60,000 bases of DNA from assembly GCA_965235115.1 (NCBI GenBank), contig OZ249436.1, positions 29,390,001 through 29,450,000 of the forward strand, read 5' to 3'. The position numbers and the translations under genes were made by a program. Positions 609-39,365 of the stretch are shown in pieces. The stretch is from Laetmonice hystrix. Its lineage: Eukaryota. A model generated the notes under the pieces. The model was given only the letters and a program-made list of their open reading frames with translations. It was not told the DNA's origin and made no database searches. Position 1 is the first letter of the stretch. Every line of letters begins with the position of its first letter.

Positions 609-908
609 TCACACGTGGGTGGAAGGGCTTGAGCCCGGCTTGTCTCCGTGAAGTGTCTTGAAATGACGTGCCAGGTTGTCGGTGCGTGAAAAGCGTGCCC
701 CACACACTGAACACACATGAGGTTTGTCTCCTGTGTGCGTCAGCATGTGGCGCTGCAGTTTACCACTGATGTAAAAGATTTTTCCACAAACGTTGCAAAC
801 GTGATTGGCTGACGGCGACCTGCCTGTTGGATCTTCTGTTTTACGATACACACTTCCGTCTTTCCAGAGGTCCAGCTGTCCAGTGGCCTCCAGCCATAAG
901 CCAGTAGT
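609..908 (-). CDS. Variable terminal exon V46 (2 C2H2 fingers) of the multi-isoform zinc-finger gene
   Basis: Acceptor ttatcttccag|ACT, phase 0; open frame into CNVC..HMLTH-TGDKP-CSVC..RTDNLARHFKTLH; own stop. Confidence 0.85.
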   Translation of the reverse strand, partial: TTGLWLEATGQLDLWKDGSVYRKTEDPTGRSPSANHVCNVCGKIFYISGKLQRHMLTHTGDKPHVCSVCGARFSRTDNLARHFKTLHGDKPGSSPSTHV

Positions 909-1044
909 CTGGAAGATAACAAGCGAGTGGCTTAGCCTTATAACTTACTACGGTTTTTGTGGGCATGACTCAATACAAACTGATGGAAACCATCTACAGG
1001 AGTGAACCCCTTCCTTGGTGAATTTATATCGGCTACCCAACGCC

Positions 1045-1356
1045 TCATTCTGTAGAACCTTCGGATGGATGAAAACGTTTGACATGGCGACTTAAGTTAT
1101 CGGCCCTTGAGAAGCGCACGCCGCACACGCCACACCCGTGAGGCCGATGTCCGGTGTGGGTCAGCATGTGCCGAGCGAACTGCGCGTACACTTCTTTTCC
1201 ACAAATATGACATTTCTGTGGCTGGCCGTCAGTTGTGGGGCCAGCACTTGGGACGTTCTTGAGACGCCAGGCCGACCCGCTCGACACTGTTACTGCCCCG
1301 GTCATATTTTCCATCTGGTCCAATTGTATGGATGAGGACAGCCATTGTTCATCAGT
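1045..1356 (-). CDS. Variable terminal exon V45 (2 C2H2 fingers)
   Basis: Acceptor gtatcttccag|ACT, phase 0; CHIC..HMLTH-TGHRP-CGVC..RADNLSRHVKRFH; own stop. Confidence 0.85.
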   Translation of the reverse strand, partial: TDEQWLSSSIQLDQMENMTGAVTVSSGSAWRLKNVPSAGPTTDGQPQKCHICGKEVYAQFARHMLTHTGHRPHGCGVCGVRFSRADNLSRHVKRFHPSEGSTE

Positions 1357-1657
1357 CTGGAAGATACATGTAATAATCTTTCTTACTAGCCGATCACGGT
1401 AGGCACGCCGTTTTTAATTATAGTACAATTTCTGACATGTCTCACCACACCTGTTGATATACCATCCTATATCTAGAGGTTACTACAGACCAAGACCCTT
1501 TCCTGTTTGCGGGAATATCTACACCTTGAATGCTGGACTTCATCCCTCGTCATGCCAAGTCTACAAGAATCCAACAGACTTCTTATGGCAAAATTCCTTT
1601 ACAGAAAAAAAAACACATCCGAAACTTATTTCTGGATACCTCGGCAAGACTTGGTTT

Positions 1658-1924
1658 CTACTGTGCATGACTTCTCTCGTGTCTTTGCAAGGAGTCTTTC
1701 CTTGAGAAAAGACGTCCACAGACACTACAACCAAAAGCCCTCTCGCCAGTGTGTGTTATCATATGCCTCTGTAAGTGTGCATTTGTGCCAAAGTTTTGAC
1801 CACAAGTAGGACACTGCCGCCTCTCCTTGCTGTTCGGTGTGTCGCTCCTTGTAGGATCTGCTGGTTGGCCGAGCAGATTTATAAACGCCTGCTTGGATTC
1901 AGCCCCTTTCCATTGCCCTAACAT
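1658..1924 (-). CDS. Variable terminal exon V44 (2 C2H2 fingers)
   Basis: Acceptor ctctcttgcag|ATG; CPTC..HMITH-TGERA-CSVC..RKDSLQRHERSH; paralogous to V43. Confidence 0.85.
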   Translation of the reverse strand: MLGQWKGAESKQAFINLLGQPADPTRSDTPNSKERRQCPTCGQNFGTNAHLQRHMITHTGERAFGCSVCGRLFSRKDSLQRHERSHAQ

Positions 1925-2436
1925 CTGCAAGAGAGCATGGCACAGTCTGAGTCAACGTTTTTGGTCTACACCTGCTACAAATATTGTGGTCCTATGATTC
2001 TGGGTGTTAGACCCATCACGGCAGACAATTGAATTTATTTAAAGATGCACCCATACGGTAGTCGTCAATGCAATGTCTCATGTATTGGCTTTACTCAATC
2101 AATCCCCGGACGTCATGAGTGACTGCTGTCCTTAATCATTGTGGTATACGTAAGAACAAAAGCTCGTTTTGGCAAAACGGCCCGTCGGCCTCTAGTCTGC
2201 TGTTTTTGCTAATTAATTACTCAATACTGTTTTCCCCGTGCCAGCATCAGCTGAAGACAACCAGTAACCATGCCAATCCTTTGAAAATATAATGTCTCTG
2301 ACACAGTATATGAGCAACCGTCGCACGCCTCCAAATTTATTTTTATATCAGCCTCTCATTTAAGCAGCATCTCTAGTCGTCACTTCACGATTTCCTACAT
2401 AAAACTATTCCTTCCATATCTTTTCGACATACTGAC

Positions 2437-2733
2437 TTAGAAATCAGTTCTTGGTCTGCATGTGTGTGAACTTTTCACATGCCTTGAAAGGGTATCTTTC
2501 CGTGCGAAACCGGTATTGCAATTGGGACATTGAAACGGTTTCTCTCCTGTATGAGTTAACATATGCCTCTGTAAGTGTGAAGTGTAGACAAATGTCATCC
2601 CACATCTAAAACATTGCAGTTCCTCCTTGCGATTTGCCTTTTTGGCGCTTGTTAAATTTGGACGATCTGTAGATGATCCAAGGGGAATCAAAATCGTCTG
2701 CTCGCTTTCACTCTCTTTCCATTCACCTAACAT
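2437..2733 (-). CDS. Variable terminal exon V43 (2 C2H2 fingers)
   Basis: Acceptor ctctcttgcag|ATG; CFRC..HMLTH-TGEKP-CPNC..RKDTLSRHVKSSH. Confidence 0.85.
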   Translation of the reverse strand: MLGEWKESESEQTILIPLGSSTDRPNLTSAKKANRKEELQCFRCGMTFVYTSHLQRHMLTHTGEKPFQCPNCNTGFARKDTLSRHVKSSHTCRPRTDF

Positions 2734-2848
2734 CTGCAAGAGAGGATGACAGAGTCTGAGTCAAGCATTTCATACTGAATAAATGCTCTCGAATAACGCC
2801 GTCGCTCGATCCATAGCGACCGCTCTTTGTCTATATGAAACCAGTTTC

Positions 2849-3232
2849 TTATGAAATGCCATGGACTGTCTGCATGTGCCTGGAAAGAGAATCTTTCCTG
2901 GCAAAGGCAGTAATGCAAAGTGGGCAGGGGAAAGGTCTTTCACCGGTGTGCGACAACATGTGGCGCTTAAGTTTCCATGAATAGGCAAACGCTTTCCCAC
3001 ACACATCGCACGTAGCCGTTTTGACTGGTGGCGATGATGTAAGTTTGCTTGGAGAGTCATTGCTACTCAGGGCAATGCGTCTATTTGCATCTTCTGGGTG
3101 AGGCATTGACCTGGCTGCACCGGCATCATATCTGTACTGCTGTGCTGTATCCAACATAGTAAGCTTTGGGCCACCGGCACCAGTGGTTTGATCCTGGTTC
3201 CTCACAGGTGTTGCTCCCTCTCTCCATGCTGT
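2849..3232 (-). CDS. Variable terminal exon V42 (2 C2H2 fingers)
   Basis: Acceptor actcttgcag|ACA; CDVC..HMLSH-TGERP-CPLC..RKDSLSRHMQTVH. Confidence 0.85.
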   Translation of the reverse strand, partial: TAWREGATPVRNQDQTTGAGGPKLTMLDTAQQYRYDAGAARSMPHPEDANRRIALSSNDSPSKLTSSPPVKTATCDVCGKAFAYSWKLKRHMLSHTGERPFPCPLCITAFARKDSLSRHMQTVHGIS

Positions 3233-3490
3233 CTGCAAGAGTTGTAAAAAATGTACTCGTTTAGCTCCTTCAGGACGACATTTCTCTCTCTTCGCCATGG
3301 GCAGTCAGTACAAGTATATTGTCTTTGTGAAAGGGTCCTAAACTCTAACCCCTCCTTCAATCGAATACTCCGCCGCATGGAAACCCTTAGGGCTTCTACA
3401 CAAACACAACGACATACATGTACATATGTGGGGTTTCCGATATGGCACGAAATAGTCTTTCATGATGATGCTGAAAAGAACGTATTTCCT

Positions 3491-3913
3491 TCATTTGTGT
3501 ACCAAAATGACATGCCTTGTAAGGGTGTCCTTTCGTCCGAACGTGGCACCACAGGAGGAACACACGAACGGCCTTTCTCCCGTGTGGCACCGTTTGTGGC
3601 GGATTAACTGCCATGTATGTACGAAATGTTTCCTGCAGATGTCACAAGCTACCTTTCCTTTCTGGGTTGACGGAGAGCTTTGGTTTACTGGCTCTACCTT
3701 TCCTAAACATCCACTCTGGGTTAACGGATAACCTTGGTTTACTGGCCGTAAGTAGGTAGCGGCAAGTGGATCTTTTCGGTCATCTGGCCCAACCCCAGTG
3801 ACATCACGTTTGTTATTCACCGACTGTGCTGGATCCAACCCCTCCAGTTTCTCGACGTCAAAAGTACGTTCACCGAGAGCCCTCACCCTCTCTGACCCAT
3901 CTTTAACCGATAT
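3491..3913 (-). CDS. Variable terminal exon V41 (2 C2H2 fingers)
   Basis: Acceptor catattgcag|[34 protein letters not shown]. Confidence 0.8.
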   Translation of the reverse strand: MSVKDGSERVRALGERTFDVEKLEGLDPAQSVNNKRDVTGVGPDDRKDPLAATYLRPVNQGYPLTQSGCLGKVEPVNQSSPSTQKGKVACDICRKHFVHTWQLIRHKRCHTGERPFVCSSCGATFGRKDTLTRHVILVHK

Positions 3914-4316
3914 CTGCAATATGCGCAAAATATGCAAGTGTTATATTTTACTGTCGCACTATGAAATTAACCTTCTTATTTGAAATACACCAGGTATAAA
4001 TGATAGTAACCCAATCATTATGATGGGTAGGGAACAACCAGTTTGGATGACTTTGCTTTGATGCGACGTCTTGAAACTTATCTCCCTTCACCTACTATTA
4101 GTCTGGCAAGAAGCAACTTTTCTTATACTACACATTTTGTTATAGTTTCGGACATCCGACTATGCTCAGTACACCAACATTCCTTTTATTAAAAGATGTA
4201 TTACTAATGATTGATTACGAGAAAAAATCTGCAGCATCTTTCGGTGGTCAAGTGGAAGCCAGCGTGTTTATAATATGATATTGCCGCGTACTGTACCGAA
4301 AGAGCCTGGTTAAAGA

Positions 4317-4628
4317 TTAGCAAGGTAATTTGAGTTGGTGTCTTGACTTCAAGTGGTTCTTCAAATGATGTCCAAGTGTGAAAGCTGCAGAGCAATATGA
4401 ACACTTGTATGCCCGTTCCCCTGTGTGGCTTCTAAAGTGGCGTGCAAGTTCTGCAGGAACTCGGAACGTACCGCCACATACGGAACAAATATGTGGTTTT
4501 TTCACTGGTGACTGCTTCATCTGAGATTTATGGATCTCTGCTACAGTTTCCAAAGGCCGCACTGACGGGGATGGCCATCCAAGGCCAGGGTCCATTATTC
4601 CTAGGACTTCCCCAGATCTGGCGTTGTC
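4317..4628 (-). CDS. Variable terminal exon V40 (2 C2H2 fingers)
   Basis: Acceptor cgtcttccag|GAC; CSVC..HFRSH-TGERA-CSYC..LGHHLKNHLKSRH. Confidence 0.85.
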   Translation of the reverse strand, partial: DNARSGEVLGIMDPGLGWPSPSVRPLETVAEIHKSQMKQSPVKKPHICSVCGGTFRVPAELARHFRSHTGERAYKCSYCSAAFTLGHHLKNHLKSRHQLKLPC

Positions 4629-4976
4629 CTGGAAGACGTGAAGGGAATAATAGTTAAATATAGAATTAACTGCTAACCCCACTTTTTGATCGAAGTTTTC
4701 ACGCAGCATGCCAAATCTTTTTCTTATGAAAAGATATCTATAAGCCATTCCCCTTGATGTCAGCAGATCTTGGGCAAAAAGCAATAGGTACTTGTATATT
4801 CCATCCTTCAAAAAATACTATTCTGTAGCATTTGATAATTCTTATGTATTGGTCAGTCCATGAAGTTTGCTATATTTCAAGTCAAGAAAATTAAGCATCG
4901 CCGTCACTCATGGCTTTTCCCACGTATGGCGGCAGACTTAGGCAGGTTAGAAAATCAGTTTAGTACTGCCACCTTA

Positions 4977-5075
4977 CTTTTATCTAGCAGTGAATATTAC
5001 CTCTCATTCCTTTTATCTAGCAGTGAATTTTACCCCTTATTCCTTTTATCTAGCAGTGAATATTACCTCTCATTC
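4977..5075. repeat. Short tandem repeat, about 33-bp unit x3
   Basis: tttatctagcagtgaat(a/t)ttacc.ct.attcc occurs three times in tandem. Confidence 0.8.
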
Positions 5076-5449
5076 CAAGACACCCAAAGATGATGGCTGG
5101 CAGAGAACAGTAAACAGTATTTTTCTGACTCTTTATTGGTACATGAATAAAACATCTTACCATTATGCACTACTGATTGACACTACTGAGACCATTACTG
5201 TGGCAAATAGATGATCTCACGAACAAAACGTTTCCTACAACTGTACCGATTTCATTCTTATCGATACTTCTGCCTTTGATGTCGAAATCATCCAATCCAA
5301 TGTATAGACAATCGTAAAACCAGTTAGTGAACGAGAGGTCTCATGCTCAATTTAAAATGTGTTTTATCTGTCTCTACGTACTCTACGTGCCTATTATCCA
5401 TCCTCTTTTTCAGTCTGTATCATCAAAACTGGGTCTATATTTTGCCCCT

Positions 5450-5689
5450 TCATGGTTGTATTGGCGCTGCTCGCCGACTTTCAAGTCCACCTTGATTGCG
5501 AAACTGCGAAAATCCCGAAAAACGCAACCGTCTGACATGTCTCCTGTGGACACAAAGCAGCCTAGTAACCGCAATAAGTTTCCAGTTTCTGCCTGTATTC
5601 TGCTTGACATGGTCTTTGTGTTTGGAAACCAAATGGGAGTAGTGTTCCCGACACTGTAAAACGCGCTTACACAGACGGCGATTGTTTGA
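5450..5689 (-). pseudogene. Degenerate variable exon V39 (no intact C2H2 finger)
   Basis: Array-type phase-0 acceptor tgtttctgcag|TCA and an open frame of typical exon length, but only finger-like remnants (C..C..H..H..TG). Confidence 0.4.
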
Positions 5690-5914
5690 CTGCAGAAACA
5701 TGCTCCCCACATAGATCCTTATCCATAACTACAATTATTGAAGCAATACGTTATCATCATCCGTGATTGCATGGTCCTTATCACCACATAAATACTAGAG
5801 ACCTTTTCTATTGCAGTGCCAATTTTGGCTGGGAACATACTTCAGGGTTCCCAAAACGCCACCAAGATCTATGTACGTCTGAAATCTGCGGGCAGGGACC
5901 TGTGCCTTTGTATT

Positions 5915-10532: not shown

Positions 10533-10859
10533 TCACCGGGGCGGGTTTAATACAGTCTCCAGGTGAAGACTTTTAACATGTCTTTTGAGGTTATGGTTCA
10601 ATGTAAATGTTGCAGGACAGTGTGAACACTTGAAGTGACGTTCTCCTGAATGGGTAACTTGATGCCTCTTCAGGTTGGAGGCATTTGCCAGCTGAAGACC
10701 ACAAATGGAACACTTGTATTCTTTTCCTGCTGCAGACTGATGCGTCTCCCTAAGGTCAAACACGTGAGGCAAACCTTCAGTCTGCGCTTTCAAATACCAA
10801 GGGGCTGGCATCTCCTTTGGCCGATACGAAACAAGTCGATTCTCACTGGAAGGGGGGCA
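10533..10859 (-). CDS. Variable terminal exon V31 (2 C2H2 fingers)
   Basis: Acceptor tgtgtttcag|TGC; CSIC..HQVTH-SGERH-CSHC..LNHNLKRHVKSLH. Confidence 0.85.
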   Translation of the reverse strand, partial: CPPSSENRLVSYRPKEMPAPWYLKAQTEGLPHVFDLRETHQSAAGKEYKCSICGLQLANASNLKRHQVTHSGERHFKCSHCPATFTLNHNLKRHVKSLHLETVLNPPR

Positions 10860-18579: not shown

Positions 18580-19339
<760 letters not shown>

Positions 19340-20189: not shown

Positions 20190-20426
20190 CTATGGAAATA
20201 CTCCATGTACATTTTTTTCATGACTCCTTGCATGTGCCATTTGTTTGAACGCTGCACCGCACTGAACACACTTATACGGCCTCTCACCGGTGTGCGTGCG
20301 AGTATGTCGCAAAAGATGATCGGGTGTTCGGAATCGTTTCGGACATATTAGGCAGTGATGTTTGTAGATGTGGTTATAATTAGACATCTGATGCAGGTGA
20401 AAGCCACCGAGTCCTGTTGGTGCTGT
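20190..20426 (-). CDS. Variable terminal exon V18 (2 C2H2 fingers; TAPT subfamily)
   Basis: Acceptor tgtgttgcag|[34 protein letters not shown]. Confidence 0.85.
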
Positions 20427-20797
20427 CTGCAACACACAACAGTGAAGATCTTTATCAGCTCAGCTCTCCTCAGAAAAAGTTTCAGTCATCTGACTTGGCA
20501 GGAGAACTGCAGCAGGTTTCTCAACCAAGTTTGTCAGTTTTCTCTTTCAATGACAAATGCAGATGTATATTTTGACCACCATTCTTTGTAATACAGTACT
20601 GTAACTCAGTACGAAGTTATTCCTTACAGTACTGGTGTTCACCACTGGTATTCACGACAATTATTCAAACCTATATACCACTTACCAACTCAAATATTTC
20701 TGTTAAGGCTATAGTAATGTATGCCCACATGTAGAGCTACTAATTCTGACTTAGCGTTTTTCCAACCGTGAATGAGACATGCCTTTTGTGCTGTCTA

Positions 20798-21034
20798 TCA
20801 TGTACCTGTGCCATGGACAGTATTATCATGACTTCTGACATGTGCCTTCTGCTTGAATGATGCCCCACACTTTGCACAAATAAAAGGTCTTTCACCGGTG
20901 TGAGTGCGTACATGTCGCACTAAGTGGGCGGGTGTTCGAAAACGTTTCAAGCATATCTGGCACTCGTGTTTGAAGGGTGTCCTAAACTCAGACATCTGAT
21001 GAAGTTGAAAGCCACCGATTCGTGTTGGTGCTTT
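20798..21034 (-). CDS. Variable terminal exon V17 (2 C2H2 fingers; TAPT subfamily)
   Basis: Acceptor tgtgttgcag|[34 protein letters not shown]. Confidence 0.85.
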   Translation of the reverse strand, partial: KAPTRIGGFQLHQMSEFRTPFKHECQICLKRFRTPAHLVRHVRTHTGERPFICAKCGASFKQKAHVRSHDNTVHGTGT

Positions 21035-21611
21035 CTGCAACACACAACAGTGAAGACCTCTTATGACCTCATCTCGGCTGACATATTTATATAGATTACT
21101 CTTCCTGGTCCAAGGCTTTATTTCTGTTCTTCTAACTTTAAGATATATACATTGTGGCATGTAGTCACATGATTGCACTGAACCTTCTTATCATCTTGAG
21201 AGCAACTGTTGAGATCAAATCAACTCTAAATCTCGAACAGCCATGTCCATGGAAGGGATTGGTCAAATACTGTCAATATTTAAACCTTTCAAGTATGGAG
21301 ACTTTTACCAGCCCAGCTCTCATCAGAAAAAGTTTTTGTCATCTGACTTGGGAAGGTCTCTTATCCATGTTTGTCAGTTTTCTCTTTCACTGACATAAAT
21401 GCAGACGTATATTTTGACCACCATTCTTTGTAATATAGTAGTTGAGTATGAAGTGGTACGCCTTATACAATAACCGCACTCAAACGGATGTGTTACCAGT
21501 CTTCACCAATATTGGCAATTATTCAAACATATAAACCAACTAAACTATTCATTTCTTTACACACGTTAAGGTACTAATTCTGACTTTGGAGTGTTTGTAT
21601 TTTTGTGAAAT

Positions 21612-21777
21612 AGACATGCCTTTCATGCTGTCTGCTGTGCTGGATAGTACTACCAATCATGACTTCTGACGTGCAATTTGCTTGAATGATGGCCAATGAG
21701 GTGGGTGCTTGTTAGAAAATGTTTCAGGCATATCTGGTACTCGTGCTGTAAGGCTGGCCGAAACTCAAGGCATCTGA
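21612..21777 (-). pseudogene. Decayed pseudo-exon copy of V17
   Basis: Patches match 20774-20999 (agacatgcctt, catgacttctgac, gcttgaatgatg, gcatatctgg.actcgtg, aaactca..catctga), with an internal deletion and no acceptor. Confidence 0.7.
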
Positions 21778-21892
21778 GCAATTGTTGACATCATGTCCAG
21801 TTTAAATCTGGGATAACCATGGCCATGGAAGGGAATGGCAAAATCATGTCAACACATACACCATCCGAGAAGTAAACCAACAGACTTCACTT

Positions 21893-22129
21893 TTAAGTAC
21901 CTGTAGTGTGAACCTTAATTTCATGTCTCCTGACATGTGCCATTTGCTTGAATGATGCCCCACACTTGGAACAACTAAAAGGTCTTTCACCAGTGTGACT
22001 CCGAGTATGGCGCAAAAGATGGTTGGGCGATCGAAAACGTTTCAAGCAGAACTGGCATGTGTGCTTCAAGGGTGGCCTAAACTCGGACATCTGATCGAGT
22101 TGAAAGCCACAGACTTCTGTTGGTGCTGT
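21893..22129 (-). CDS. Variable terminal exon V16 (2 C2H2 fingers; TAPT subfamily)
   Basis: Acceptor tgtgttgcag|ACA; CQFC..HTRSH-TGERP-CSKC..QMAHVRRHEIKVH. Confidence 0.85.
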   Translation of the reverse strand, partial: TAPTEVCGFQLDQMSEFRPPLKHTCQFCLKRFRSPNHLLRHTRSHTGERPFSCSKCGASFKQMAHVRRHEIKVHTTGT

Positions 22130-22433
22130 CTGCAACACACAACAGTGAAGACCTCTTATGAACTCATCTCTCCAGACAAATTGATTATCATTTACTTAAT
22201 ATGGTTTGTGGTTTCATTTGTCCGTAAAGCACTTTAAACATAATGAAATGTACCCGTGACTCCACTGAATTCTACTGTGTTAGAAATGACATAAATATTG
22301 CTCTTAGAAGAGATATCATTGAGATCAAGCACTTTCTTCATCCGGAGTAGCTGTGGCCATAAAGGGGAAGGCAAAATCCTGCCAATATTTTAGTCCCATT
22401 CAAAGAGCACACTACCTCATTTCAATGGGCCTT

Positions 22434-22670
22434 TCATGTTCCTGCAGTATGGAAACTACTTTCATGTCTCCTGACATGTGCCATTTGCTTGAATGATGCA
22501 CCACACTTGGAACAACTAAACGGTCTTTCACCAGTGTGACTGTGAGTATGGCGCAAAAGATGGGCGGGTGTTCGAAAACGTTTCAAGCATATTTGGCATG
22601 TGTGCTTCAAGGGTGGCCTAAATTCAGACATCTGATGGAGTTGAAAGCCACTGACTCGTGTTGGTGCTGT
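22434..22670 (-). CDS. Variable terminal exon V15 (2 C2H2 fingers; TAPT subfamily)
   Basis: Acceptor tgtgttgcag|ACA; CQIC..HTHSH-TGERP-CSKC..QMAHVRRHESSFH. Confidence 0.85.
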   Translation of the reverse strand, partial: TAPTRVSGFQLHQMSEFRPPLKHTCQICLKRFRTPAHLLRHTHSHTGERPFSCSKCGASFKQMAHVRRHESSFHTAGT

Positions 22671-22807
22671 CTGCAACACACAACAGTGAAGACCTTTATC
22701 AGTTCGGCTCTGAAAGGACCTTTCAAACTCTACATGAAGAAGACAAAACAATTGATCCCTTTCACCTGATGTAGTAGTATGATGAACAGTCAGCAGGATG
22801 TGATGAT

Positions 22808-23053
22808 TTACTCGAGACTGCCGTTATTGTACCTATGTACACTTTTTTCATGATACTTAACATGTACCAACTGTTTAAATGTCGCACCACACTGGGCACA
22901 AGAAAATGGCCTCTCACCAGTATGAGTGCGACTATGTCTCAATAGGTGTGAGGGTGACTGAAAAATTTTCAAACAAATCCCACAGGGGTGCTTCATGGTC
23001 GACTTAAAATGAGACACCTCATGTTGAACGCCACGGAATCTTGTTGGTGCTGT
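22808..23053 (-). CDS. Variable terminal exon V14 (2 C2H2 fingers; TAPT subfamily)
   Basis: Acceptor tgtgttgcag|[34 protein letters not shown]. Confidence 0.85.
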   Translation of the reverse strand, partial: TAPTRFRGVQHEVSHFKSTMKHPCGICLKIFQSPSHLLRHSRTHTGERPFSCAQCGATFKQLVHVKYHEKSVHRYNNGSLE

Positions 23054-23141
23054 CTGCAACACACAATGATGAAGAGCACTTAGCGCTATTTTACCTGTAT
23101 ATTTGGCTGAAGGATTGGTTGCTATTTTACTTCCAACATCT

Positions 23142-23408
23142 TCAGGATTTGGTGCCAGTATGCAAAGTTTGCTGATGCCTCTTAAGGTTGTTTAACTGAG
23201 TAAATGCCTGCCCGCAGAAAGTACATTTAAAAGGCTTTTCTCCTGTGTGAGTCCTGGTATGTCTAGCAAGTAGGCATGGAGACTGAAATGCTTTGCCGCA
23301 GGTTGTACAAAGATGTTTTTTAAGAGGACGCGCTACAGAGATATTAGAGCCTACAGGATCAAGTTTCCAGGGCTGACTGCTGGGGTATCCTTGAATAATT
23401 AGTCCACT
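23142..23408 (-). CDS. Variable terminal exon V13 (2 C2H2 fingers)
   Basis: Acceptor tgtgttgcag|[34 protein letters not shown]. Confidence 0.85.
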
Positions 23409-23749
23409 CTGCAACACACAACAATAAGAACTAGTTGGTACCATCACATCACACTTTAATTTTTTAAACGGCCTCAAACAGCTAAAAGACCTCTCATTGT
23501 ACATGATAGATGAAGTGGAATCCACTGAATATAATCACTGTTACAGTAATCAGTTTTATGGTAGGGGTGGAATCACCCTCATCCAGGTGTATACAAGATC
23601 GTCTGTCAAGTGTCAAAGAGTACCTAGCCTTGCTGACACAATCACCAGTTCGGCTATGTTGGCTGAAAAAGTCATGGCCAAGGTCATGCAAATCCTGTCA
23701 TCTTTGCCCTAGTGGGGCAACGCTGGATCATACAGACAGATACACCAGC

Positions 23750-24010
23750 TCATTTTCCCTCATGCTTATTGCGCTCATGTCTAAGTAGATGACCAGATTG
23801 TCTAAATGCTCTGTCACAGTGGGAGCACTGATATGGCCTCTCTCCCGTATGTGTTCGCAAGTGGCGCAAACAAGACCATTGTGATTGGAAGTATTTGCCG
23901 CATATTTCACACTGGTGTTTTGGTGTTGGTATTTTACGTGCTTGCTCCAGAGTTGCATCTGAATTCCAAAACTGGGGGCTCTGGAATCCATCCTTTGGGT
24001 ATGGGCCAGT
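23750..24010 (-). CDS. Variable terminal exon V12 (2 C2H2 fingers; PTPK subfamily)
   Basis: Acceptor gtttttgcag|[34 protein letters not shown]. Confidence 0.85.
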   Translation of the reverse strand, partial: TGPYPKDGFQSPQFWNSDATLEQARKIPTPKHQCEICGKYFQSQWSCLRHLRTHTGERPYQCSHCDRAFRQSGHLLRHERNKHEGK

Positions 24011-24313
24011 CTGCAAAAACCAACAACAGAGCATTCAATCTTGCCGCTACAGTTGTGTGTACATTTATTGGTAGGATGGATGTTTCACGTTTTCCAGTGG
24101 ATTGAAGTCCCGAGAAAATGACAAGGAACCACATTTTTTGTTCACCAGGAACCAGTCCTGAATTTTTGTCTCCTTGAAATATATTTCCCTTTATTACGAG
24201 TCCTCTTATTTCACCACGCTTTGGAGTCCTGCACAAATTCACACTTTTTGACAGATGTGTCATGAGAAGTAAGCAGATCCCATACAATACTGGCCCATGA
24301 GAACATAGCACTA

Positions 24314-24592
<279 letters not shown>

Positions 24593-24891
24593 TCAGAGCA
24601 TTCAATCTTGCCGCTATAGTTGTATGCAAATTTATTGGTAGGAGGGCTGCCTCACATTTTCCAGTGAACTGAAGTCTGTCGGTAACAAGTTTGTCTGGAT
24701 CACCCTAATCACCAGGAAATAGGAAGGAAGTTGCAAACCAGTCCTCTATGAGTAGTTTTATCTGCTTGATAGAAGTTTCCTCTATTTCGAGCAATCTTAC
24801 ATTGCTTAATGGTCCTGCAAAAATAGGTACTTTCTGAAAGGCAGTGGGCAGACCCCAAATACGTTGCCTCCTCAGAACCGAGCTCTACCAA

Positions 24892-25173
<282 letters not shown>

Positions 25174-25707
25174 TCAATCTTGCCGCTACAGTGGTGTGCA
25201 TATTTACTGCCCAGAGATGCTATGCTTTTTACATGGAACCGCAATTCTGTACATCAATTCTTGATAAAGAGTGTGCCTCCTTGAAATTTAGTGCAACATT
25301 ATAAACCAGATCATGAAAACCGACATGTCACGGATGCTAGGGAAATAAACACTAATACATTCCAATTCTTCTTTATTCTAATAATACAAAGACAATTTTT
25401 CCCTGCTAACATATTCCATTAGAAAGTTATTAGACTAAACATAGCTTGATAAAGTAATTAATAGGGCTACATGTCAAAGTTTCCTCTACTTTGTGGGCCC
25501 ATTGTTTTTTGCTTGTTTCTATAAAGATTGATTCAAGGTGTTACAAAATTCCCTTAAAGCAATCACCCAGTATCTTATTTCAATGACTCTAGGATGTTAT
25601 TCCTTCCAAAGTTTTGAGCAGCATGGAGATACCGTTTAGAACAAAGATTTTGTAGCACTATACGGAATTGTTTAAAACAAGTAATATGCTACATAGTCAA
25701 CCACTAA

Positions 25708-25983
<276 letters not shown>

Positions 25984-30905: not shown

Positions 30906-30992
30906 CTGCAACAGACAATGGTGAAGGAAAACCAGTCAGAGCCCAGAACATTTTCTTCCTCGTCCTACTACGTTAACATAAAATACAAATTT

Positions 30993-31283: not shown

Positions 31284-31317
31284 CTGGAAAATGCCCAATA
31301 AGATCATGTACAAGCAA

Positions 31318-31707
31318 CTACTGATGCTTCCGCATGTGATACCGAAGTGTTGTTGAACGCGTGAATGCTGATCCACACACGTTACAAATAAATGGCCTTT
31401 CTCCCGTATGGCTTCTCTTGTGTTGGTTAAGATTGCCAACAAGGGCAAAGCCTGCTCCACACACGTTACACTTAAATGGTTTTTCTCCTGTGTGAGAACG
31501 CATATGATTCTTCATTCCTGATGATGATGGTGAAAGCTTTTCACACACTTTGCAAAAACCAGACGTGTTTTGGCTAGATATATCAGGGTTCATCCCATCA
31601 CCAGAGGTATATACCCTGGGTTCGATAGTTGTTGCAGGACACTGCTGGTGATTTCCATATCCTAAGGTCTGATCAAAAGCTGTGCTAGAGTGGTCGGCCA
31701 TACCAAC
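31318..31707 (-). CDS. Variable terminal exon V1, closest to the common exon (3 C2H2 fingers)
   Basis: Acceptor ggtgtttcag|GTT; CKVC..HMRSH, CNVC..HKRSH, CNVC..HMRKH with TGEKP/TGERP linkers. Confidence 0.85.
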   Translation of the reverse strand, partial: VGMADHSSTAFDQTLGYGNHQQCPATTIEPRVYTSGDGMNPDISSQNTSGFCKVCEKLSPSSSGMKNHMRSHTGEKPFKCNVCGAGFALVGNLNQHKRSHTGERPFICNVCGSAFTRSTTLRYHMRKHQ

Positions 31708-34615
31708 CTGAAACACCCCAACAAAGACAGGTCACAATGGCATTCTGTATTTGGGGTCTTTGGAAACTCCCCACCTGCCAGAGACAATTTTTCTAAAGCA
31801 AGAGGTATGGTCCTTACATCCTGGACCTACGTTGCCTCACCAAATTATCTTCCTTCTCTGTGTTGTACGGTACCTAAGGAGGTACATCCTGAATAAATTT
31901 GATGGGGCTATATCTTAGGATCTTCAATATGATGCGTTCATATACAGTACATCTAAAGTACAAAACAATATTATGACATCTCGTGTTACATTTAAAACAT
32001 CAGCCTCATTTTTCAACCCCATTGTTCAGTGTAAAGTCTGCAGATAGAAACTGCAATAAATTAAACTGCAAAACTTTGTGCAGAAACCTAACCCAAATAA
32101 ATTACATAATCCAAGTCATACACTAGGAATTAAAGTATAGACTTCAGTCTTTTGGGAACTGAAGAGACGGTCGAAGCTCTCTTGAGTCATAACTGTAAGA
32201 AATGAACTACACTCATAATTATTTATGAAATTTACCTGTCATTCTTGCAGATTAGGATCTAATAATATGCTATTAAATGTGTACACTAAATATTTCATGA
32301 AATGTGTGATTCTCCTTCAACACCTCACATACTGCATCAACAGAAGCACAGAATCCTGTGAATAAACTCAAAGTCGAAACATCCATAAACTCGTGAAGTG
32401 ATCATTCTTCCACAACCTCGAGGTCTCTGGTAATAATCTTCATTGGAAATTATTAGCAGAAAAGCTAATGACATTGAATCTTAGCACCCAATAGTTATAC
32501 ATCCCAAAGAGTCTTGATATGATAAATCCAACTGATGTAACAACACATTTACGTCCATCCTGAAATGTCCACCTGGCATTACATGTATACACACCAACGT
32601 CCTCTGTCATTTTGGCAAGATTATTAGATCTATGGTTCATGAAAACGAATAGTATACTGTATGTACATCTCTCAACCATTTATAATGATAGGTACTTCAT
32701 AAATTCCATGCAGCAAAAGGTACATTGTACCCAGTTTACACACTTTGGAATACTTCAGAACAAAACGACCTAAGTAAGATTGTCTTAACTGCCAGACATT
32801 AAAAGAACTTTTGATTCACAGATTAAAACCAAATAAACCTATCTGCATGGATGCCACACATTCCACTGTCAATCATGTTCCCACATAAATAAATACATGT
32901 GAGAAAATCGACTTACCTGGTCAAACACAAATTTGATCAAGTTCATCTCACAATCATCTCATAACCAAAACATTCAGGGACCAACTACCAGGAATAAGAA
33001 ATTTAATAAAATTTTATAACTTATAACAAGAAATCTTAGTTGGTAATTGTTTATCAACAGTCCCAACTTTTGAACCCTCAACTTTATGTGTGAGATAAGC
33101 TTGATCATTTTAAAACACATAAATGAACATTCACTGAGGCATCATATATATGCTTCATTTTAAAACAAATAACCATTTTGGTTGATGATTTAAATCACTT
33201 TGCATATTTAATCTCTCGACCGAATTAAAAAGGCTGGTAGACAGCTGTCTCCTAGAATTGGCCAGCTTTGAACCTTACATGGTGCACATAATTTTCACCG
33301 TGCGATATGGCACTACTTTAGCCACACATGTATAGACTAGTACCTCACAAGTTTGCGATGTTATATGACATATGATGCAACACTGGTGACTGTTCATTTA
33401 TCAATAATACAGAAGAAACAGTGATAACGTGGAACCCTTTGACACTGTCACAGACCTTCCACCCACCTATTCTACTTTGTTAGTAACAATCTATGACAGT
33501 GAAAAATTGTATCAACTATTCACTCATTGATCAATACCTTCAGAGATGACAAGCTTCTTGTTCCACATTATCAACTGTACCAAAATACCTGCATTCTATA
33601 TTTCTTTATTATTGAGAATTTGTATTCTCCATCTTGTTTCAAAACAAGTATTCAACAATCTATTGAACAACCGTTGACTTGTGCTTTCAGATGGAAGGAA
33701 AACGACAGTTCAACTACCGGTAAATCAATTAGCTAAAGCATACAGGCTCGCATGCAAGCCCTGATCTGCTGGATCTGCTCCCTGAATCTTCTCAAATGAG
33801 ATAGTTCAAGGGTGTATGTTATTTGGAGTCACGGTAACTTTTCTAATAATTATGTTTGCACACATACAAAATTGTACCAGTAGGTACATTGTATGTATCA
33901 GGTCGAATATAAATATGGTATCTTTTATAACTCCAACGGAGTAGATTTCTTTTCCTTTACATCACTAAGATTTTAGAAGCCATCCAGATCTTCCAGTCAA
34001 CGGTTGTTACTGATTCAAAGCATGAACATCTCCTGGGACCAACCATATAGGACAGCTGTCCACAATAACTTTAAAATCGCAGTAAAATATTTTAAAACTG
34101 TTGGTTGGTTCCATGAGGGACTAAATCATGGAATGGCAGTTTGAGGAGCTGAAGCACTTCAACCAAGGTTTTTCTTGATAATTATTTATGGACAATTGTT
34201 TTCAGATATAATTTCCAAATACCGGTAGCTTACAGGCGAGTCATTTTAAAACATTTTCATTTTCCACACAGGGTGGGCAATAAAATGCTGAAACCAAGTA
34301 GAGTGCAAAGGGTTGGCCAAGGGTTATGCTAGTAACTAGAGCCAATGGGGTAGGGTCTGCCTGGTATCCTAGCAACTAGGTCGACAAGATAACTCCACCA
34401 CACATGAGATCTATACGTCACTGGTCAGCTGACCAAGCAGTTGTCCATCAAATCCAAATTAGCAAAAAAACAGGAATTATTTTCATAAATTACCCCAAAT
34501 CTGATTTTCTATTAGCTCTTCTAATTTTAAGGGACATTCAATTCAGGTACATGTTCCTCATATACATATCCCCAACAATTGAATTTGTGTTGAAAAAATT
34601 TTCCTTTTAAATTAA

Positions 34616-34651
34616 TGCTTAGAGGAGGCAATAATGTCTGAAAATCCAAGC
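34616..34651 (+). repeat. 36-bp direct repeat, copy 1 (copy 2 at 37384-37419)
   Basis: tgcttagaggaggcaataatgtctgaaaatccaagc is identical at both sites. Confidence 0.85.
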
Positions 34652-36188
34652 CTGCTTTGTAGGTCAAAAGCACAGATCAGAGCTCCCCATTGGTTCCAAT
34701 AGTCAACCCCCGGCCTTTAAGTCAGGGTTTCCTATGTTCCAAAATATCTTTAAAAACCAAGAATATACACTTCCAAAATATCTTTAAAAACCAAGAAGTA
34801 TGTACTTTTTCAACAGTGCTCCAGATTGTCATTCAAACTGCCATTACGTTCTTAGTACTTAATCTTAATTCTTAAGAAAATATGCTATCCACTGCATAGC
34901 TTTCCCAGGAACAGTACAGCATTTTTTAAAAGTGCTCAAATCCAGCATTAAATTTATACTGAGAATAAGTAATCTGGGGTCGAAAGATGGATACACAAAT
35001 ACGCATAATTACAGAAAACTGTGATTTTGGTTGTCATGTCATGAATTACACTGTAACATATTATCGCACGCAATGCTGCACTGAACAGGGTTCTGTTTCA
35101 ACATTTTTTAAGCATTTGCCAGAGGTTAAACTGCACATGGCTCTTTTGGGGGAGGGGGCGGGGAGGAAATCACAGTATCTAAAAGTTTTTTTTAAAAGGG
35201 TAGCAGTGATATTTCTTAATGCAGGGGGTTGGAATTAACTTGTTAGAAAATTGTCATCTTTTCAGCCTTATAACATAAAATTTATTATCGTCTTAACAGG
35301 ATGTACTTCCTGGTAATGAGGGATTTGTGGCAATGTTTTCAGCTAACAGAGACCAAGTTTTAAAAGGGGTAAACCCTTAAATTTGGAGGGGGGGGGGGGG
35401 TCCCCTGCCTTAAAATTTTGGTAGTTCTTTTTGTGAGGACCTTAGTTTTTAGGGGCAGCAATAAAGATGGATCATGATCAATATCTAGAGCAACGAGCAT
35501 TTCGTTTCCAATAAAGTGCCTCCCATTTCGATAAAAGTGCTTCCCACCAAGGTTTCTGGATTGTTAACAAATAACCTTACCTGGGACTGGCAATAAATTG
35601 GGCAAGATTCTAAATTAAAAATGTGGGTTTCAAACCTGCGAACAAGCTGGTATCCAAACCATTCAGTAACCTCTGGCAATACTTAACATAAATATTGTCT
35701 TCTCATGTAAATATCATGCTTTCACTTTTCGCCCCCCTTCCCTCCCCGGCCATGTCACACCTCTTTCCATAATATATTTTTTTGAGCTACATCACTTCCT
35801 GCTTGAAAGTTAAATGATGAATGTAATCCCCGCCCCATCAACAAAAAAGTAAAGCAGTACAGCTACACTACAATAAGTTTCATGACAACCCTAAATCCTA
35901 TTTCCTGAAATGAAGCTTAATTTTGTTGATCCCATACTATTATCAATAATTTCCATAAATATAAATAACCACTAATCTGGAGTGTAGATTTCTCTATTGT
36001 AATTGTAAAGACAGCTCATCTAAAGCTTCATTTGGTTAAATCCACTTTTTCTTTTTCTCTTTTAAATCCCGCCAAACATTTGAAAAATACTATTTTCCAA
36101 GTGAATCAGCATTTTGGTGTGATTATTTGTGTTGTCGAGCAGTGATAGCATATCTTCTTAGTCAATGAACAAAAGAGAAGGTACCAAC

Positions 36189-37022
36189 CGTGTCTGAAGC
36201 TTGCTGTAACCCGCCTCCCCCAGGCCATGACGAACAACCTGGCTGTGACAAGTCTCCACCGGACATTTGACTATCAGAGTCTTGGAATGCTGAATGCGCA
36301 ACTTGACTGGCAAACTCCCCCATTGCTGCAACATTTGGCCACTGTGATCCTATTTGGTACCCCTCGTCTCCGTCTGCTCCCGAATCCGATGCCCCGAGTC
36401 GTCTCTTGGATGGTGGTTCCCCATCATTTTCAAGCTTTCCTACGTGTTCAAAGTCTGGATATTCACCTGAATGTACACTGTCTTGTGGCATATCAAAGCC
36501 TTGTTGATCGCTTTGATATGATGTGTTCTCCTGATTTGGAGACTGAGATGAACTATGAGTCCTTGGACTGCGAACACGTCGCTGGCCTGCAACTCGAGTT
36601 GCTTGTTGTGCTACACTGTCTGGAGATCTCAGTCTTGAAGGTAACGGTTCTACAACCATACACTCATCATCAGACAAGGCCTCTTCTGTTTTAATATTTT
36701 GTGATAAAGGTTTACTGTCTTGTGTGTGAGGAGAGTTTCTTGGTGCTGGACTACTGGCCACAGCCAGAGTCCTTTTCTTACCAGGAGTGACGGGCATGTC
36801 CTCACCAGAAGGCCTAGGCTCACTGTTGTTTTCTGTCCGTTTGGCACTCAAGGCGCTTGGGAAAGATTCACTAATGTGTACAAAAAACACATCTTTACTA
36901 TCTACTTTCACCCCTAGAAGACCTTCCACACATAACTCATCATCATAAGTGAGGCTGTTTTTACACAGTAATGTCACCGTGTCAATTAGTAAATTCTTCA
37001 CACGCTCTTGATCTGCCTTCAT
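36189..37022 (-). CDS. Common (constant) coding exon of the multi-isoform zinc-finger gene: 278 aa, compact N-terminal domain plus Ser/Pro/Gln/acidic low-complexity region
   Basis: Acceptor ttattctcttttcag| (exon starts 37079); ATG at 37022 (MKADQERVKNLL...); phase-0 donor ACG|GTTGGT at 36188 matches the phase of all variable exons; NLS-like PGKKR and PSKRR, SUMO-like IKTE. Confidence 0.85.
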
Positions 37023-37383
37023 TTTGATAAAATGTTGCAATTACATCGACACTTTGGTTTTAAAAGCCACAGGTTGAATCTGAAAAGAGAATAAAACTTA
37101 TGTAGAGTTATCTATAAATATGTTGAAATATTTAATTGAACTTATTTACCATGAAATATTCTCAAATTTGATTGGCATAAGGACCAACATGGCAGGCAAT
37201 CAGTAGCATACCATCCCAGAGATCTACGTGGAACCATGCCTATATGGGGGCTGCTACCCCATTATTATACCACTGGCATGGTTCCAACTACAGGAAAATT
37301 GGACTTTTTGCAACCCCAGTTCAGAGTCGCAGATCATAGATGTTTTACCGTGCAAAATACACCGTTAGAACACATAACACACC

Positions 37384-37419
37384 TGCTTAGAGGAGGCAAT
37401 AATGTCTGAAAATCCAAGC
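37384..37419 (+). repeat. 36-bp direct repeat, copy 2
   Basis: Identical to 34616-34651. Confidence 0.85.
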
Positions 37420-37947
37420 AGGGATCAGGTTGGGTCACGATATTGTAAAGCCACCCTTGGACATTTTTTGTTCCTGCAATGCTGTGCAAGTCATGCAATT
37501 TCAGTGGTATGCAGCGGACCGTGAAGCCTTACAAGTTTGCTACCTGTTTGCACACTGTGTACACGCATAAGTTACGCACTGTCTATGCAATGCTAGGGCT
37601 TGAAAATTCTGTTTGCCTTATCGCCAAATGCGAATGAAAAGTTTGCCTTGGCGAGAATAAAATTCCAGCAGGTAGACATTTGGCGAATAAAACTTCATAA
37701 ATTTCACCTAAAGAATCGCCACTCTTTAACTGCCATCCACAAGATGTAAAATAATAGGTGAAATAGAAAGCAAAGCCCCAAGATCGGCCCAAAAAGCACA
37801 TTGTAGAATTCGTACCATTTAGAATACATTTCTTTGCACACTTAAGGCACTTCAATGCACATCATGAAGCAAATTCTAGAATTTGCATACCTGACATGAA
37901 TTACTGAATACGCTTCGCTTTGGTGCGCTATTTCAGGCTATTGTGAA

Positions 37948-38298
37948 TACTGTAAATCAGGTATTTTTCATGTGTTTTAATTTCATAATTTTTGCGTTTT
38001 CAAAAAAAACCCGGGAAATTAAGAAACGCGAAATAAACACTTGGAACGGCGCATTTCCAGTAATATCCGCTTACAAAACAAAACAACACTTCATTACCTT
38101 ATTTAACTTGGCAGTTGCTTACAATACCAGCTCTTGCTGTATTTGCGTGGTGGGGAATTAAAACTGTTGAATTTATTACATGGCTTTGCCTTTACTTTTA
38201 GATAGGATGCCATTGCCTAAACGCAAATTAACGCCAAACCAGCCCAAAATGAAAAAACGCGAAATTTTAATCATGCCAAATTAAAGTGATTTACAGTA
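37948..38298. mobile_element. Non-autonomous DNA transposon (MITE, Tc1/mariner-like ends)
   Basis: Terminal inverted repeats TACTGTAAATCA ... TGATTTACAGTA with TA ends; internal cgcgaaat repeats. Confidence 0.6.
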
Positions 38299-39145
38299 GT
38301 GTGGATTCTGCAGATCATTATATATAACAGGTATTATAGGGATAATATATAAAGTGCATTTTGGGATGGTAACAAATACACCCTGCTCCCTTGCACAGGG
38401 AAGACTCGAGGGAGACTGAAGGTCTGTAAGCAGGGTTCCTAGTCTTTTGTGATTTCAACTAAAAACCAAATTGCCCAAGTTTTCCCTTAAATCCTTCTGA
38501 AACTCCATGAGAAATATTTTGTTTTATAGGTAGACCTTTATAGCATGCCATAGCTGACTATAAAGGTAACTGTATGAACACTAAAAATGCACGATCCAAA
38601 TAAAATTATTTAGGCCGAACGTTAGTCAAAACCGAAAACACTCCCCGGCAGTCACAATGCCAAGCCCAAGGCCAAGGCAATTAGTCCGATCGACAACGAG
38701 TAACGTGTAGGCCTATGCCGCCCCTATGCCCCCGCCAAATAGAATCAACCTGATGAAAACCTTTCTCTTCTGGTATATTGTCAAATTCCCTGAGTTTTTA
38801 TGCTTTCCCCTGATTCCCCGAATCGCCTCTAGGCCTACCTCACTTTAAGGGCTTCCCTGATTTTCAGAGTGGCTGGGATTCGGAACCCTGCTAAGCTAAC
38901 GACTGGAGTCTGAGTCAAAAGTGCAAAGTGTGCCGTGGCGTGGAGGACAAGGCCTCGCGTGCGTAGAAACATCTTTTGACAAAGCCAATGATTGAAAACT
39001 CCGAAATGTACATTTCAAGACGTTCAATGCAATCTTATTGAAATCTGGAATCAAAATTTGGAATAAATATATACTAAATAATCGAACAACCCTATCAGAT
39101 CGACCGACAGAGTTTAGCGTGATGACGCGGTCTTTAAACAAAAAC

Positions 39146-39365
39146 AAAATGGCGGTCAGCGAAGCCATCTACGCCGGCATCATGCAATAATTGTGACCGG
39201 GATTGTGAAACAATTAGCCAGTTTCCGCCGCGAAAAGGTCATTAATTTGGTAAAATGGTATATGAACTTACCTTTTAAGTATATTTACGGGGAGTAACGA
39301 TAAAACGTGATGCCAATAAAACCTAAAACTTCTGTGCGCCTCTTTTCGCACTTCCTCCTTCCGCG
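39146..39365 (-). promoter_or_regulatory. Probable promoter and non-coding first exon of the zinc-finger gene
   Basis: Consensus donor AAG|GTAAGT at 39272/39271; ETS-like GGAAG motifs at 39350-39363; YY1-like AAAATGGCGG at 39146-39155; locally CpG-rich. Confidence 0.55.

Follow-up and report, generated by a model that had tools for sequence, protein, structure and literature searches.

A probable lola-like array of 54 zinc-finger last exons behind one constant exon in Laetmonice hystrix

The constant exon and the cassette array

The window, a stretch of 60,000 nucleotides of the Laetmonice hystrix genome (contig OZ249436.1, positions 29,390,001 to 29,450,000), contained a constant exon and, behind it on the same strand, an array of C2H2 zinc-finger cassettes. 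The constant exon and its acceptor occupied positions 36189–37079 of the minus strand. The acceptor lay at 37079 and the ATG at 37022, and the coding part of 834 nt (278 codons) ended at 36189, where it was followed by a phase-0 donor with its GT at 36188 (ACG/GTTGGT), which was non-consensus in the form GTTGGT. A constant exon of 278 residues with a phase-0 donor at 36188 had been proposed in a sequence-only reading of this DNA and was borne out by the sequence. Farther upstream, the minus-strand segment 39272–39420 probably comprised a non-coding first exon and the promoter region, and the strong donor after 39272 (AAAAG/GTAAGT) would close this 5′ UTR exon. The position of the constant-exon donor was conserved: valine (GTN) occupied the column past the exon end in 31 of 34 homologous gene calls, and a phase-0 GT stood at the exon end in 18 paralogues of the same genome, which were hand-picked from 26 distinct loci. 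Just upstream of the donor, a conserved PGCSSW motif (36225–36242, minus strand) was apparent in the alignment and was found in 143 homologues. A 4.5-kb intron (31708–36188, minus strand), in which no docking sequence was detected, extended from this single donor to the first cassette.

Forty-five minus-strand C2H2 reading frames were found in the window from 31707 to 609, each with an acceptor of the form TnTT[C/G/T]CAG, a linker of 18–89 codons, two or three fingers and a stop. The fingers were of the Kruppel type, with C-x2-C-x12-H-x3/4-H repeats and TGE[KR]P linkers. Two fingers were present in 42 of these cassettes and three in the other 3, confirming the earlier count of 45 cassettes and 93 fingers; a loose six-frame finger scan of the window gave 97 matches, 95 of which were on the minus strand. 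The minus-strand acceptors of cassettes 1–15 were at 31707, 31283, 30905, 30108, 29073, 28392, 27496, 26692, 25947, 25149, 24577, 24010, 23408, 23053 and 22670, those of cassettes 16–30 at 22129, 21034, 20426, 19339, 18846, 18457, 18110, 17347, 16750, 15625, 15160, 13678, 13138, 11924 and 11427, and those of cassettes 31–45 at 10859, 10372, 9616, 9044, 8528, 8034, 7076, 6268, 4628, 3913, 3232, 2733, 1924, 1356 and 908. The array had been suspected to run past position 1, and it did so: beyond the spacer at 1–608 (minus strand), nine further cassettes (G000:C1 ~29377190–29389950, loci L096–L097) reached 12.8 kb past position 1, and no cassette was found in the 5 kb past the ninth. The whole array held 54 same-strand cassettes with 115 fingers and 54 distinct contact-residue signatures. 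An orphan acceptor with a decayed cassette copy was observed in one case, outside the window.

Acceptor phase and cassette evolution

Acceptors were searched with a leave-one-out acceptor matrix from which phase information was excluded. The in-frame, stop-free acceptor was chosen in all 54 cassettes; an initial result of 54 of 55 included one more finger-like frame, an out-of-frame match that overlapped cassette 45 and was dropped. In the same stretches, phase-0, open sites made up 21% of the 1328 AGs and 30% of the 464 CAGs. With the crude seed score by itself, 51 of the 55 frames were assigned phase 0, and the acceptors predicted earlier (31707, 31283, 30905 ... 908) were identical to the phase-blind picks. 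Among the other AGs of the locus, only 12 of 3248 reached the score of the weakest cassette acceptor with the matrix, which was trained on the cassette acceptors. Moreover, the 30 bases before the acceptor exceeded the preceding 30 bases in conservation in 8 of 8 cassette pairs (ungapped comparison). The acceptors were UG-rich (2.1 TG per 10 nt at cassettes against 0.6 at constant-exon acceptors), a difference to be read with the shared descent of the cassettes and with the array behind the paralogue L004, which had no clear UG-richness. An exact acceptor 15-mer occurred 19 times genome-wide, 6 of them in this array, and the branch-point-like YTRAY was present in 19 of 46 cases against 14.9 +/- 3.3.

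Neighbouring cassettes were closest relatives, with the nearest one at most two positions away for 32 of the 54. Two groups of recent duplicates were resolved on the minus strand, namely four cassettes at 23750–25947 (cassettes 9–12; 63–83% identity, clade support 99/95) and five at 20190–23053 (cassettes 14–18; 52–86% identity, clade support 100/99). The fingers were under purifying selection, with a dN/dS of 0.21 at non-contact and 0.30 at contact residues in 15 non-independent pairs; that of the linkers was near 1. Local tandem exon duplication, followed by changes in the DNA-contact residues, accounts for the growth of the array. These data also bear on whether use is confined to one or a few cassettes and the others are by-products of tandem duplication, which is improbable. 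Such a view is in line with the nearly neutral evolution of the linkers and with the decayed copy and its orphan acceptor, whereas all 54 frames were intact, their median pairwise identity being 26%, the finger dN/dS was held at 0.2–0.3 and the acceptors were still conserved in diverged pairs.

The constant region, its paralogues and its relatives

The constant protein began with a conserved N-terminal domain of ~55 residues (36858–37022, minus strand), a candidate dimerisation module. The predicted fold was a helix (residues 2–23) and a beta-hairpin (29–55), both faces of which were conserved hydrophobic. No Pfam family was found at E<=10 for the 278-residue constant protein, none of 52 domain sequences matched a BTB family, and the earlier statement that a BTB domain is lacking holds at this level of sequence. 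The FxLRWN motif was absent from the constant-exon translation and the family consensus. Pfam STN1_2 was rejected as an identity, its E of 8e-5 being reached in 4 of 52 members and lying under its cut-off. A natural tandem-domain model gave a pTM of 0.73 with ~90 pLDDT in both copies and a disordered linker between them, against 0.49 for the single-domain model, pTM values being comparable across lengths only with care. The more confident folding of the tandem copy hints at dimerisation of the domain; the score of the two-copy complex prediction was 0.02, with the alignment unused and the fold uncertain, and it counted neither for nor against dimerisation. The PDB sequence search gave no match better than E 2.6. 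The single-domain structure search had a best Foldseek E of 0.88 and a best Z of 4.3 (rmsd 4.1, 51 aligned), with MADS-box chains (Z 3.6 and 3.2) appearing among unrelated entries, and the tandem model had a best Z of 5.4 (Hsp33, rmsd 3.2, 79 aligned) and a best E of 0.017. These searches yielded no usable match, from which novelty of the fold does not follow. Farther along, at 36651–36695 (minus strand), a psi-K-x-E site (IKTE) was followed by an acidic-hydrophobic stretch (DDECMVV), which we take to be SUMO-acceptor-like and SUMO-interaction-like motifs, respectively. The former pattern occurred in 222 of 243 homologous constant regions against ~20 in shuffles, and the latter in 169 of 243 against ~16.

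The gene was one of at least 36 paralogues with such constant exons in this genome, several of which had arrays of their own. Behind five other constant exons, finger linkers were found on the same strand (2 to 69 matches each), and of the first 100 HTGE[KR]P linker matches, among the matches listed, 98 shared the strand of a constant exon and lay 3′ of it. With a sparser linker pattern, this held for 22 of 22 matches on C1. In another set of finger matches, 8 of 22 on C1 lay away from any detected constant exon, as did finger clusters on C3, C8 and C19; some finger clusters fall outside the system. In the first 10 kb behind the paralogues, L004 had nine terminal cassettes and L002 had four, all on the strand of the gene. 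An in-frame TT-N-CAG acceptor was present in 13 of these 13, by a rule set after looking; behind L004 the window-trained matrix found phase 0 for only 5 of the 9 cassettes, and behind both paralogues the crude score did so for 7 of the 13 (background 25–27%).

The domain family comprised ~1,600 clusters at 50% identity, and its named members were annelid; a homologue search from a divergent paralogue returned 11 proteins. Fingers were carried by 7 of 251 homologous proteins, all on contigs of 1.2–2.1 kb, and the other 244 were finger-less, the gene calls mostly running through the conserved donor into the intron. In the contigs L031, L033 and L088 of relatives, the constant region and fingers were in one frame; zf-C2H2 was detected by Pfam on L033 and L088, and in L031 the stop was followed by another intact phase-0 cassette, in the 3′ UTR. 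Furthermore, the finger part of P0176 started exactly at the phase-0 acceptor position of the genomic loci L038, L040 and L065. By anatomy and length, these joined contigs may be transcript-like, or they could be intronless copies. Each showed one join only, and L031 came nearest to a choice among several cassettes. A seemingly single finger exon was present in each of L038, L045 and L065 within the DNA examined.

The cassettes might instead be independent tiny zinc-finger genes, each with a promoter and start codon, the constant exon being a separate or single-ended gene. The sequence-only reading had relied on non-ATG starts, an argument weaker than stated: it stands for the 12 of 54 cassettes without an in-frame ATG ahead of the first finger, and the other 42 have one, as independent genes would. 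The 244 finger-less database calls would also suit such genes, but these calls end through the conserved donor. Invariant phase-0 acceptors would then be purposeless, 9 of the 53 spacers between cassettes were shorter than 150 nt (the shortest was 35 nt), and at six loci an array followed on the 3′ side of a constant exon in the same orientation. Independent genes are hence most improbable.

Docking or selector pairing in the intron gave nothing clearly above shuffles; the best-pairing intron windows were G-rich stretches with −15.8 kcal/mol, against −13.4 to −14.8 kcal/mol in four shuffles. Neither a shared word ahead of the acceptors nor a shared spacer motif rose above shuffles. AATAAA was present in 25 of 53 spacers, and its count was 36 against 18 in shuffles; AAAATA (36), AAATAA (30), ATAAAA (29) and the antisense word (27) were likewise raised, and per-cassette polyadenylation was therefore left uncounted as support.

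The same products could arise largely by trans-splicing, with internally promoted cassettes joined to a separate constant-exon transcript, the route of the closest analogues mod(mdg4) and lola (PMC13490949 and PMC11426971). A cis route to the 54th acceptor would skip 53 similar acceptors over 49 kb and cross the spacers that contain AATAAA, and a pairing element was not found in the intron or spacers, as at mod(mdg4). However, all 54 cassettes and the 13 behind the two paralogues lay 3′ of their constant exon on the same strand; nothing therefore forces trans-splicing, whereas mod(mdg4) has opposite-strand exons. No common promoter-like word was found in the spacers, and the read-through of the downstream cassette in L031 fits either route. 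Trans-splicing is accordingly regarded as rather unlikely.

Proposed mechanism and comparison with known systems

The locus is very probably one transcription unit that, through a choice among last exons, yields up to 54 isoforms of a transcription factor. Its anatomy, phase and conservation and the joined frames in relatives were observed directly. The single phase-0 donor would be joined to one of the 54 downstream phase-0 acceptors, presumably in this species by ordinary cis-splicing. The chosen cassette would give two or three C2H2 fingers and the stop, and the cassettes further downstream would be kept in the 3′ UTR or lost at polyadenylation. All cassettes are presumably used and differ in DNA specificity. 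The constant part would contribute SUMO-type motifs as well as a small domain that associates with itself, and two short finger pairs would be combined into a longer binding site, as BTB does in lola-type proteins. The lola-like character suggested earlier was supported by the donor and acceptor phase, the stops, the paralogue arrays and the constant-plus-finger frames of relatives, and the best reading is that lophotrochozoans have convergently acquired a lola-like system, based on alternative last exons. A wider proposal is tentative, with somewhat more to be held against it than for it: an independently evolved lophotrochozoan counterpart of the arthropod BTB-lola genes, i.e., a large family built on an undescribed 55-residue dimerisation domain, with dozens of genes, up to about a hundred zinc-finger last exons each and cross-gene heterodimers.

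If the best reading is true, a major animal branch diversifies DNA-binding specificity by alternative last exons far beyond the scale of lola, and the different protein scaffold makes this a clear convergence of gene architecture. Transcription-factor counts for these genomes would change, as 244 of 251 calls were without a finger. If the wider proposal were also true, one genome would hold several hundred transcription factors, the possible dimer pairs being far more numerous, and some of the "tandem C2H2 gene arrays" counted in annelids and molluscs would be exons of few genes, mis-annotated as separate genes or missed. The locus offers a testable system for how one donor selects among at least 50 near-equivalent acceptors over 50 kb and for whether the growth of such arrays always brings trans-splicing, and it points to an uncharacterised protein domain. 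The earlier suggestion that the system may be undescribed agreed with the open literature on zinc-finger and terminal-exon systems of lophotrochozoans, where no prior description was found. The accessible portions of PMC12111275, PMC7535936 and PMC13218726 do not mention it, and the label "LZF" had no match in the literature.

A structure search with the homologue P0120 ranked mollusc multi-isoform C2H2 clusters second and sixth, with a TM-score of 0.20, under the bar of the tool. Their automatic names, "zinc finger protein 37 homolog isoform X25" and "zinc finger and BTB domain-containing protein 3 isoform X9", carry isoform numbers up to X25, as of many-isoform genes, but such names are no description of a system. 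As a lead only, they point to genes of this kind being represented by many isoforms in existing automatic annotations.

In clustered protocadherin, UGT1 and Dscam-type arrays, one constant part likewise serves a large set of isoforms that arose through tandem duplication of exons. There, promoter choice or RNA docking selects among 5′ or internal exons, and the products are surface proteins or enzymes, whereas no docking site was found here and the 3′ DNA-binding end varies. The likeness is closer to the Tramtrack-group genes (lola, mod(mdg4), ttk, br and fru), in which one constant donor is in phase with many terminal finger exons, as seen here in the genomic anatomy and the joined frames of relatives. 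According to PMC13490949, mod(mdg4) has one donor and over 30 alternative 3′ exons that encode DNA-binding-type domains, without a complementary docking sequence; its constant part is BTB, its ends are mostly FLYWCH, it is exclusively trans-spliced, and its exons form five clusters, each with its own promoter, that occupy both strands. The single donor and the many 3′ exons recur at the present locus, in which no docking sequence was detected and which differs in its classical Kruppel-type C2H2 pairs with TGEKP linkers on one strand only. In lola, a constant N-terminal region likewise receives one of several terminal exons that encode paired zinc fingers, and 17 of 20 isoforms have different C2H2 fingers; the TTK motif was found in neither annelids nor molluscs (both from PMC11426971). 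The constant part of lola is BTB and its trans-splicing is established, whereas here a 55-residue domain unrelated by sequence lies in one exon and trans-splicing would be one candidate route. Moreover, lola has ~20 cassettes, whereas this locus has 54, with at least six arrays in this one genome.

The constant exon and its cassette array

The constant exon was located on the minus strand (acceptor at 37079, ATG at 37022 and end at 36189; 278 codons) and, in the window sequence, was followed directly by a phase-0 GT donor in the context ACG/GTTGGT. The first search gave 34 homologues of the constant protein and the next gave 221; at 50% identity, 1,626 clusters matched it. A Val (GTN codon) occupied the column just past the exon end in 31 of the 34 aligned homologues. 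D/E-x-V or QV was present within 45 residues of the PGxSxW motif in 137 of 143 proteins, versus 38 of 145 control windows. As judged from the alignments, the donor position is conserved across homologues, and most of the homologous database proteins are putative gene calls running on into the intron.

The sequence-only reading of 45 cassettes with 93 fingers 3' of one phase-0 donor was reproduced by recounting: 45 C2H2 reading frames (42 two-fingered, 3 three-fingered) extended on the minus strand from 31707 to 609, the first starting 4.5 kb downstream of the constant exon. The suspected extension past position 1 was found as well when two additional stretches of the contig were read, with 9 more cassettes out to 12.8 kb and none in the next 5 kb, for an array total of 54 cassettes and 115 fingers. 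The spacers had a median of 371 nt and were shorter than 150 nt in 9 of 53 cases. In every cassette a stop codon occurred 0-46 codons after the last finger, as terminal exons would have. The argument from missing start codons was borne out for the 12 of 54 cassettes whose first finger has no in-frame ATG ahead of it; it was weak taken alone because the other 42 have one. A probable pseudo-cassette lay about 9.3 kb beyond position 1, where a strong orphan acceptor preceded the decayed, fingerless copy of a cassette linker.

For the acceptors, all AGs in the 330 nt preceding each first finger were scored irrespective of frame. With a crude seed score, 51 of 55 finger-like frames had their best site in phase 0; with a leave-one-out matrix, 54 of 55 had it in phase 0 and stop-free to the finger. 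The background was 21% of 1328 AGs and 30% of 464 CAGs. The 55th frame was dropped as an out-of-frame pattern overlapping cassette 45. All chosen acceptors read TT[C/G/T]CAG; nearly all also have a T two bases upstream of this, and a UG-rich tract is present at many. With the matrix trained on cassette sites, only 12 of 3248 other AGs at the locus scored as high as the weakest cassette acceptor. All 8 of the related cassette pairs compared were more alike in the last 30 intron bases than in the preceding 30.

Alternative last-exon choice, with the predicted products sharing one constant part, is very probable: the donor would pair with one of the 54 acceptors, and the products would be dimeric factors carrying short, swappable finger pairs. 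Trans-splicing would make the same products, but every cassette lies on the strand of the gene and 3' of the constant exon, and cis-splicing is clearly favoured for this reason. No docking sequence was found at the locus, no shared motif in the cassette spacers and no specific enrichment of poly(A) signals in the array. Acceptor choice is a guess, in which similar UG-rich acceptors would compete under RNA-binding proteins.

Elsewhere in the window, GGTGGCGCCACC, palindromic, was present in the probable promoter (39388-39400) and CCGCCATTTT in the first intron (39146-39155); these resemble CTCF- and YY1-type motifs. Tandemly repeated units of ~96 bases (42003-42834) gave repeated translations. 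A seven-transmembrane receptor gene (52500-57290, minus strand), whose first coding exon matched Pfam Dicty_CAR and 7tm_2 above cut-off, has no apparent connection with the array.

Joined frames in relatives and sister arrays

Joined frames were sought in 65 metagenome loci. In three contigs of 1.1-2.3 kb (L031, L033 and L088), the constant region continued into fingers in one frame. L031 also retained, unspliced behind its first stop, a second cassette that has a phase-0 acceptor, a finger and a stop of its own, as expected had splicing selected the upstream cassette and kept the next one in the 3' UTR. Fingers were present in 7 of 251 homologous proteins, all on contigs barely exceeding the coding sequence; P0261 was an eighth. 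The finger part of protein P0176, from residue 423, aligned to genomic loci L038, L040 and L065 starting at their phase-0 acceptors. We infer that the joined contigs are transcripts.

The only two named homologues were hypothetical proteins from Ridgeia piscesae, an annelid, and the nearest atlas cluster was mostly annelid where taxonomy was known. About 80 near-identical constant exons (P0052-P0131), several on equal-sized contigs and two named Ridgeia piscesae, were also observed; the whole gene seems massively duplicated in that lineage. In a subset of the family members L035-L077 (e.g., L041, L043 and L047), the first frame had 630-715 residues without a finger or obvious donor signature; these proteins may have another terminal domain or stand alone.

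In the 627-Mb assembly (35 contigs), the constant protein matched 41 times. These matches fell at 36 distinct loci, of which 30 were on C1, the contig that carries the window at G000:C1:29390001-29450000. A phase-0 GT, mostly GTAGGT or GTGAGT, followed the aligned exon end at 18 paralogous loci, hand-picked from 26. The HTGE[KR]P linker pattern had 1,887 matches genome-wide. Among the first 100 listed, 69 lay after paralogue L004 (74 kb), 10 after L009, 2 after L011 and 17 in the window array; these 98 were on the strand of their constant-exon gene, and the other 2 were elsewhere. Sparser patterns gave more linkers behind L003 (at least 57 kb) and L002. With one of them, all 22 C1 matches lay behind a constant exon on its strand; with another, 8 of 22 lay away from any detected constant exon. 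Finger clusters on C3, C8 and C19 had no detected constant exon nearby, and several off-gene matches were spaced at 84 nt, as in ordinary poly-finger genes. Within the 10 kb next to each paralogue, 9 cassettes lay behind L004 and 4 behind L002, and none on the opposite strand. Phase-blind picks were in phase 0 in 5 of 9 behind L004, or 7 of 13 behind both, weaker than in the window; an in-frame TT-N-CAG acceptor was present in 13 of 13 when specifically looked for. L002 and L005 were head to head, 3 kb apart (G000:C1:47051328-47055829), and the window gene and L011 were tail to tail with converging arrays. At G000:C19:12093530-12131930, an identical finger linker recurred on the minus strand at intervals of ~3.15 kb and marks tandem copies of some other zinc-finger unit.

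Constant protein and finger divergence

No Pfam family matched the constant protein. Residues 1-55 were strongly conserved among homologues and were predicted to fold into a helix plus a long beta-hairpin (pLDDT 80, pTM 0.49) with conserved hydrophobic residues on both hairpin faces. This domain occurred twice in four homologues. In the model of a natural tandem from L078, both copies reached ~90 pLDDT (pTM 0.73) with a disordered linker between, a hint that two copies may pack together. Tandem double-domain natural proteins were seen in L078:1251-1640, L079, P0047, P0048, P0135 and P0152. The remainder was low-complexity. Among 243 homologues, many of them close relatives, psi-K-x-E was found in 222 versus ~20 in shuffles and an acidic-hydrophobic pattern in 169 versus ~16; both are presumably SUMO-type motifs.

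Median identity between cassettes was 26%, and the nearest relative was at most 2 positions away for 32 of 54. A tree of 61 columns, with many forks unresolved, grouped cassettes 9-12, 14-18, 26-37 and 53-54. Across 15 non-independent close pairs, dN/dS was 0.21 at non-contact finger positions, 0.30 at contact positions and ~1.05 in linkers, and synonymous divergence was low in linkers (0.15 vs 0.45). In cassettes 9-12 and 14-18 (20190-25947), that of the acceptor-side linker was ~1/3 of the fingers', which would be explained either by constraint from splicing or by partial gene conversion. DNA specificity relates to helix positions -1, 2, 3 and 6 under the standard C2H2 recognition model. All 54 cassettes were distinct at these positions, with 87 distinct combinations among 115 fingers. 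Hence, the cassettes would differ in DNA specificity.

Comparison with known systems

In a structure search, mollusc atlas clusters auto-named '...isoform X25' and '...X9' appeared at TM 0.20, a lead that annotation pipelines may already list isoforms of such genes. No description of the family or architecture was found in searches of the open literature. The array is real and large, and the system is probably undescribed. In Drosophila, 17 of 20 lola isoforms have different C2H2 fingers and no TTK-type BTB was found in annelids or molluscs (PMC11426971), and mod(mdg4) has 31 trans-spliced isoforms (PMC13490949). Unlike that group, the constant protein of the window gene lacks BTB and FxLRWN by sequence, and on this basis the gene is not a member. 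It would nevertheless work in the same way as lola and mod(mdg4), by joining a constant part to alternative ends.
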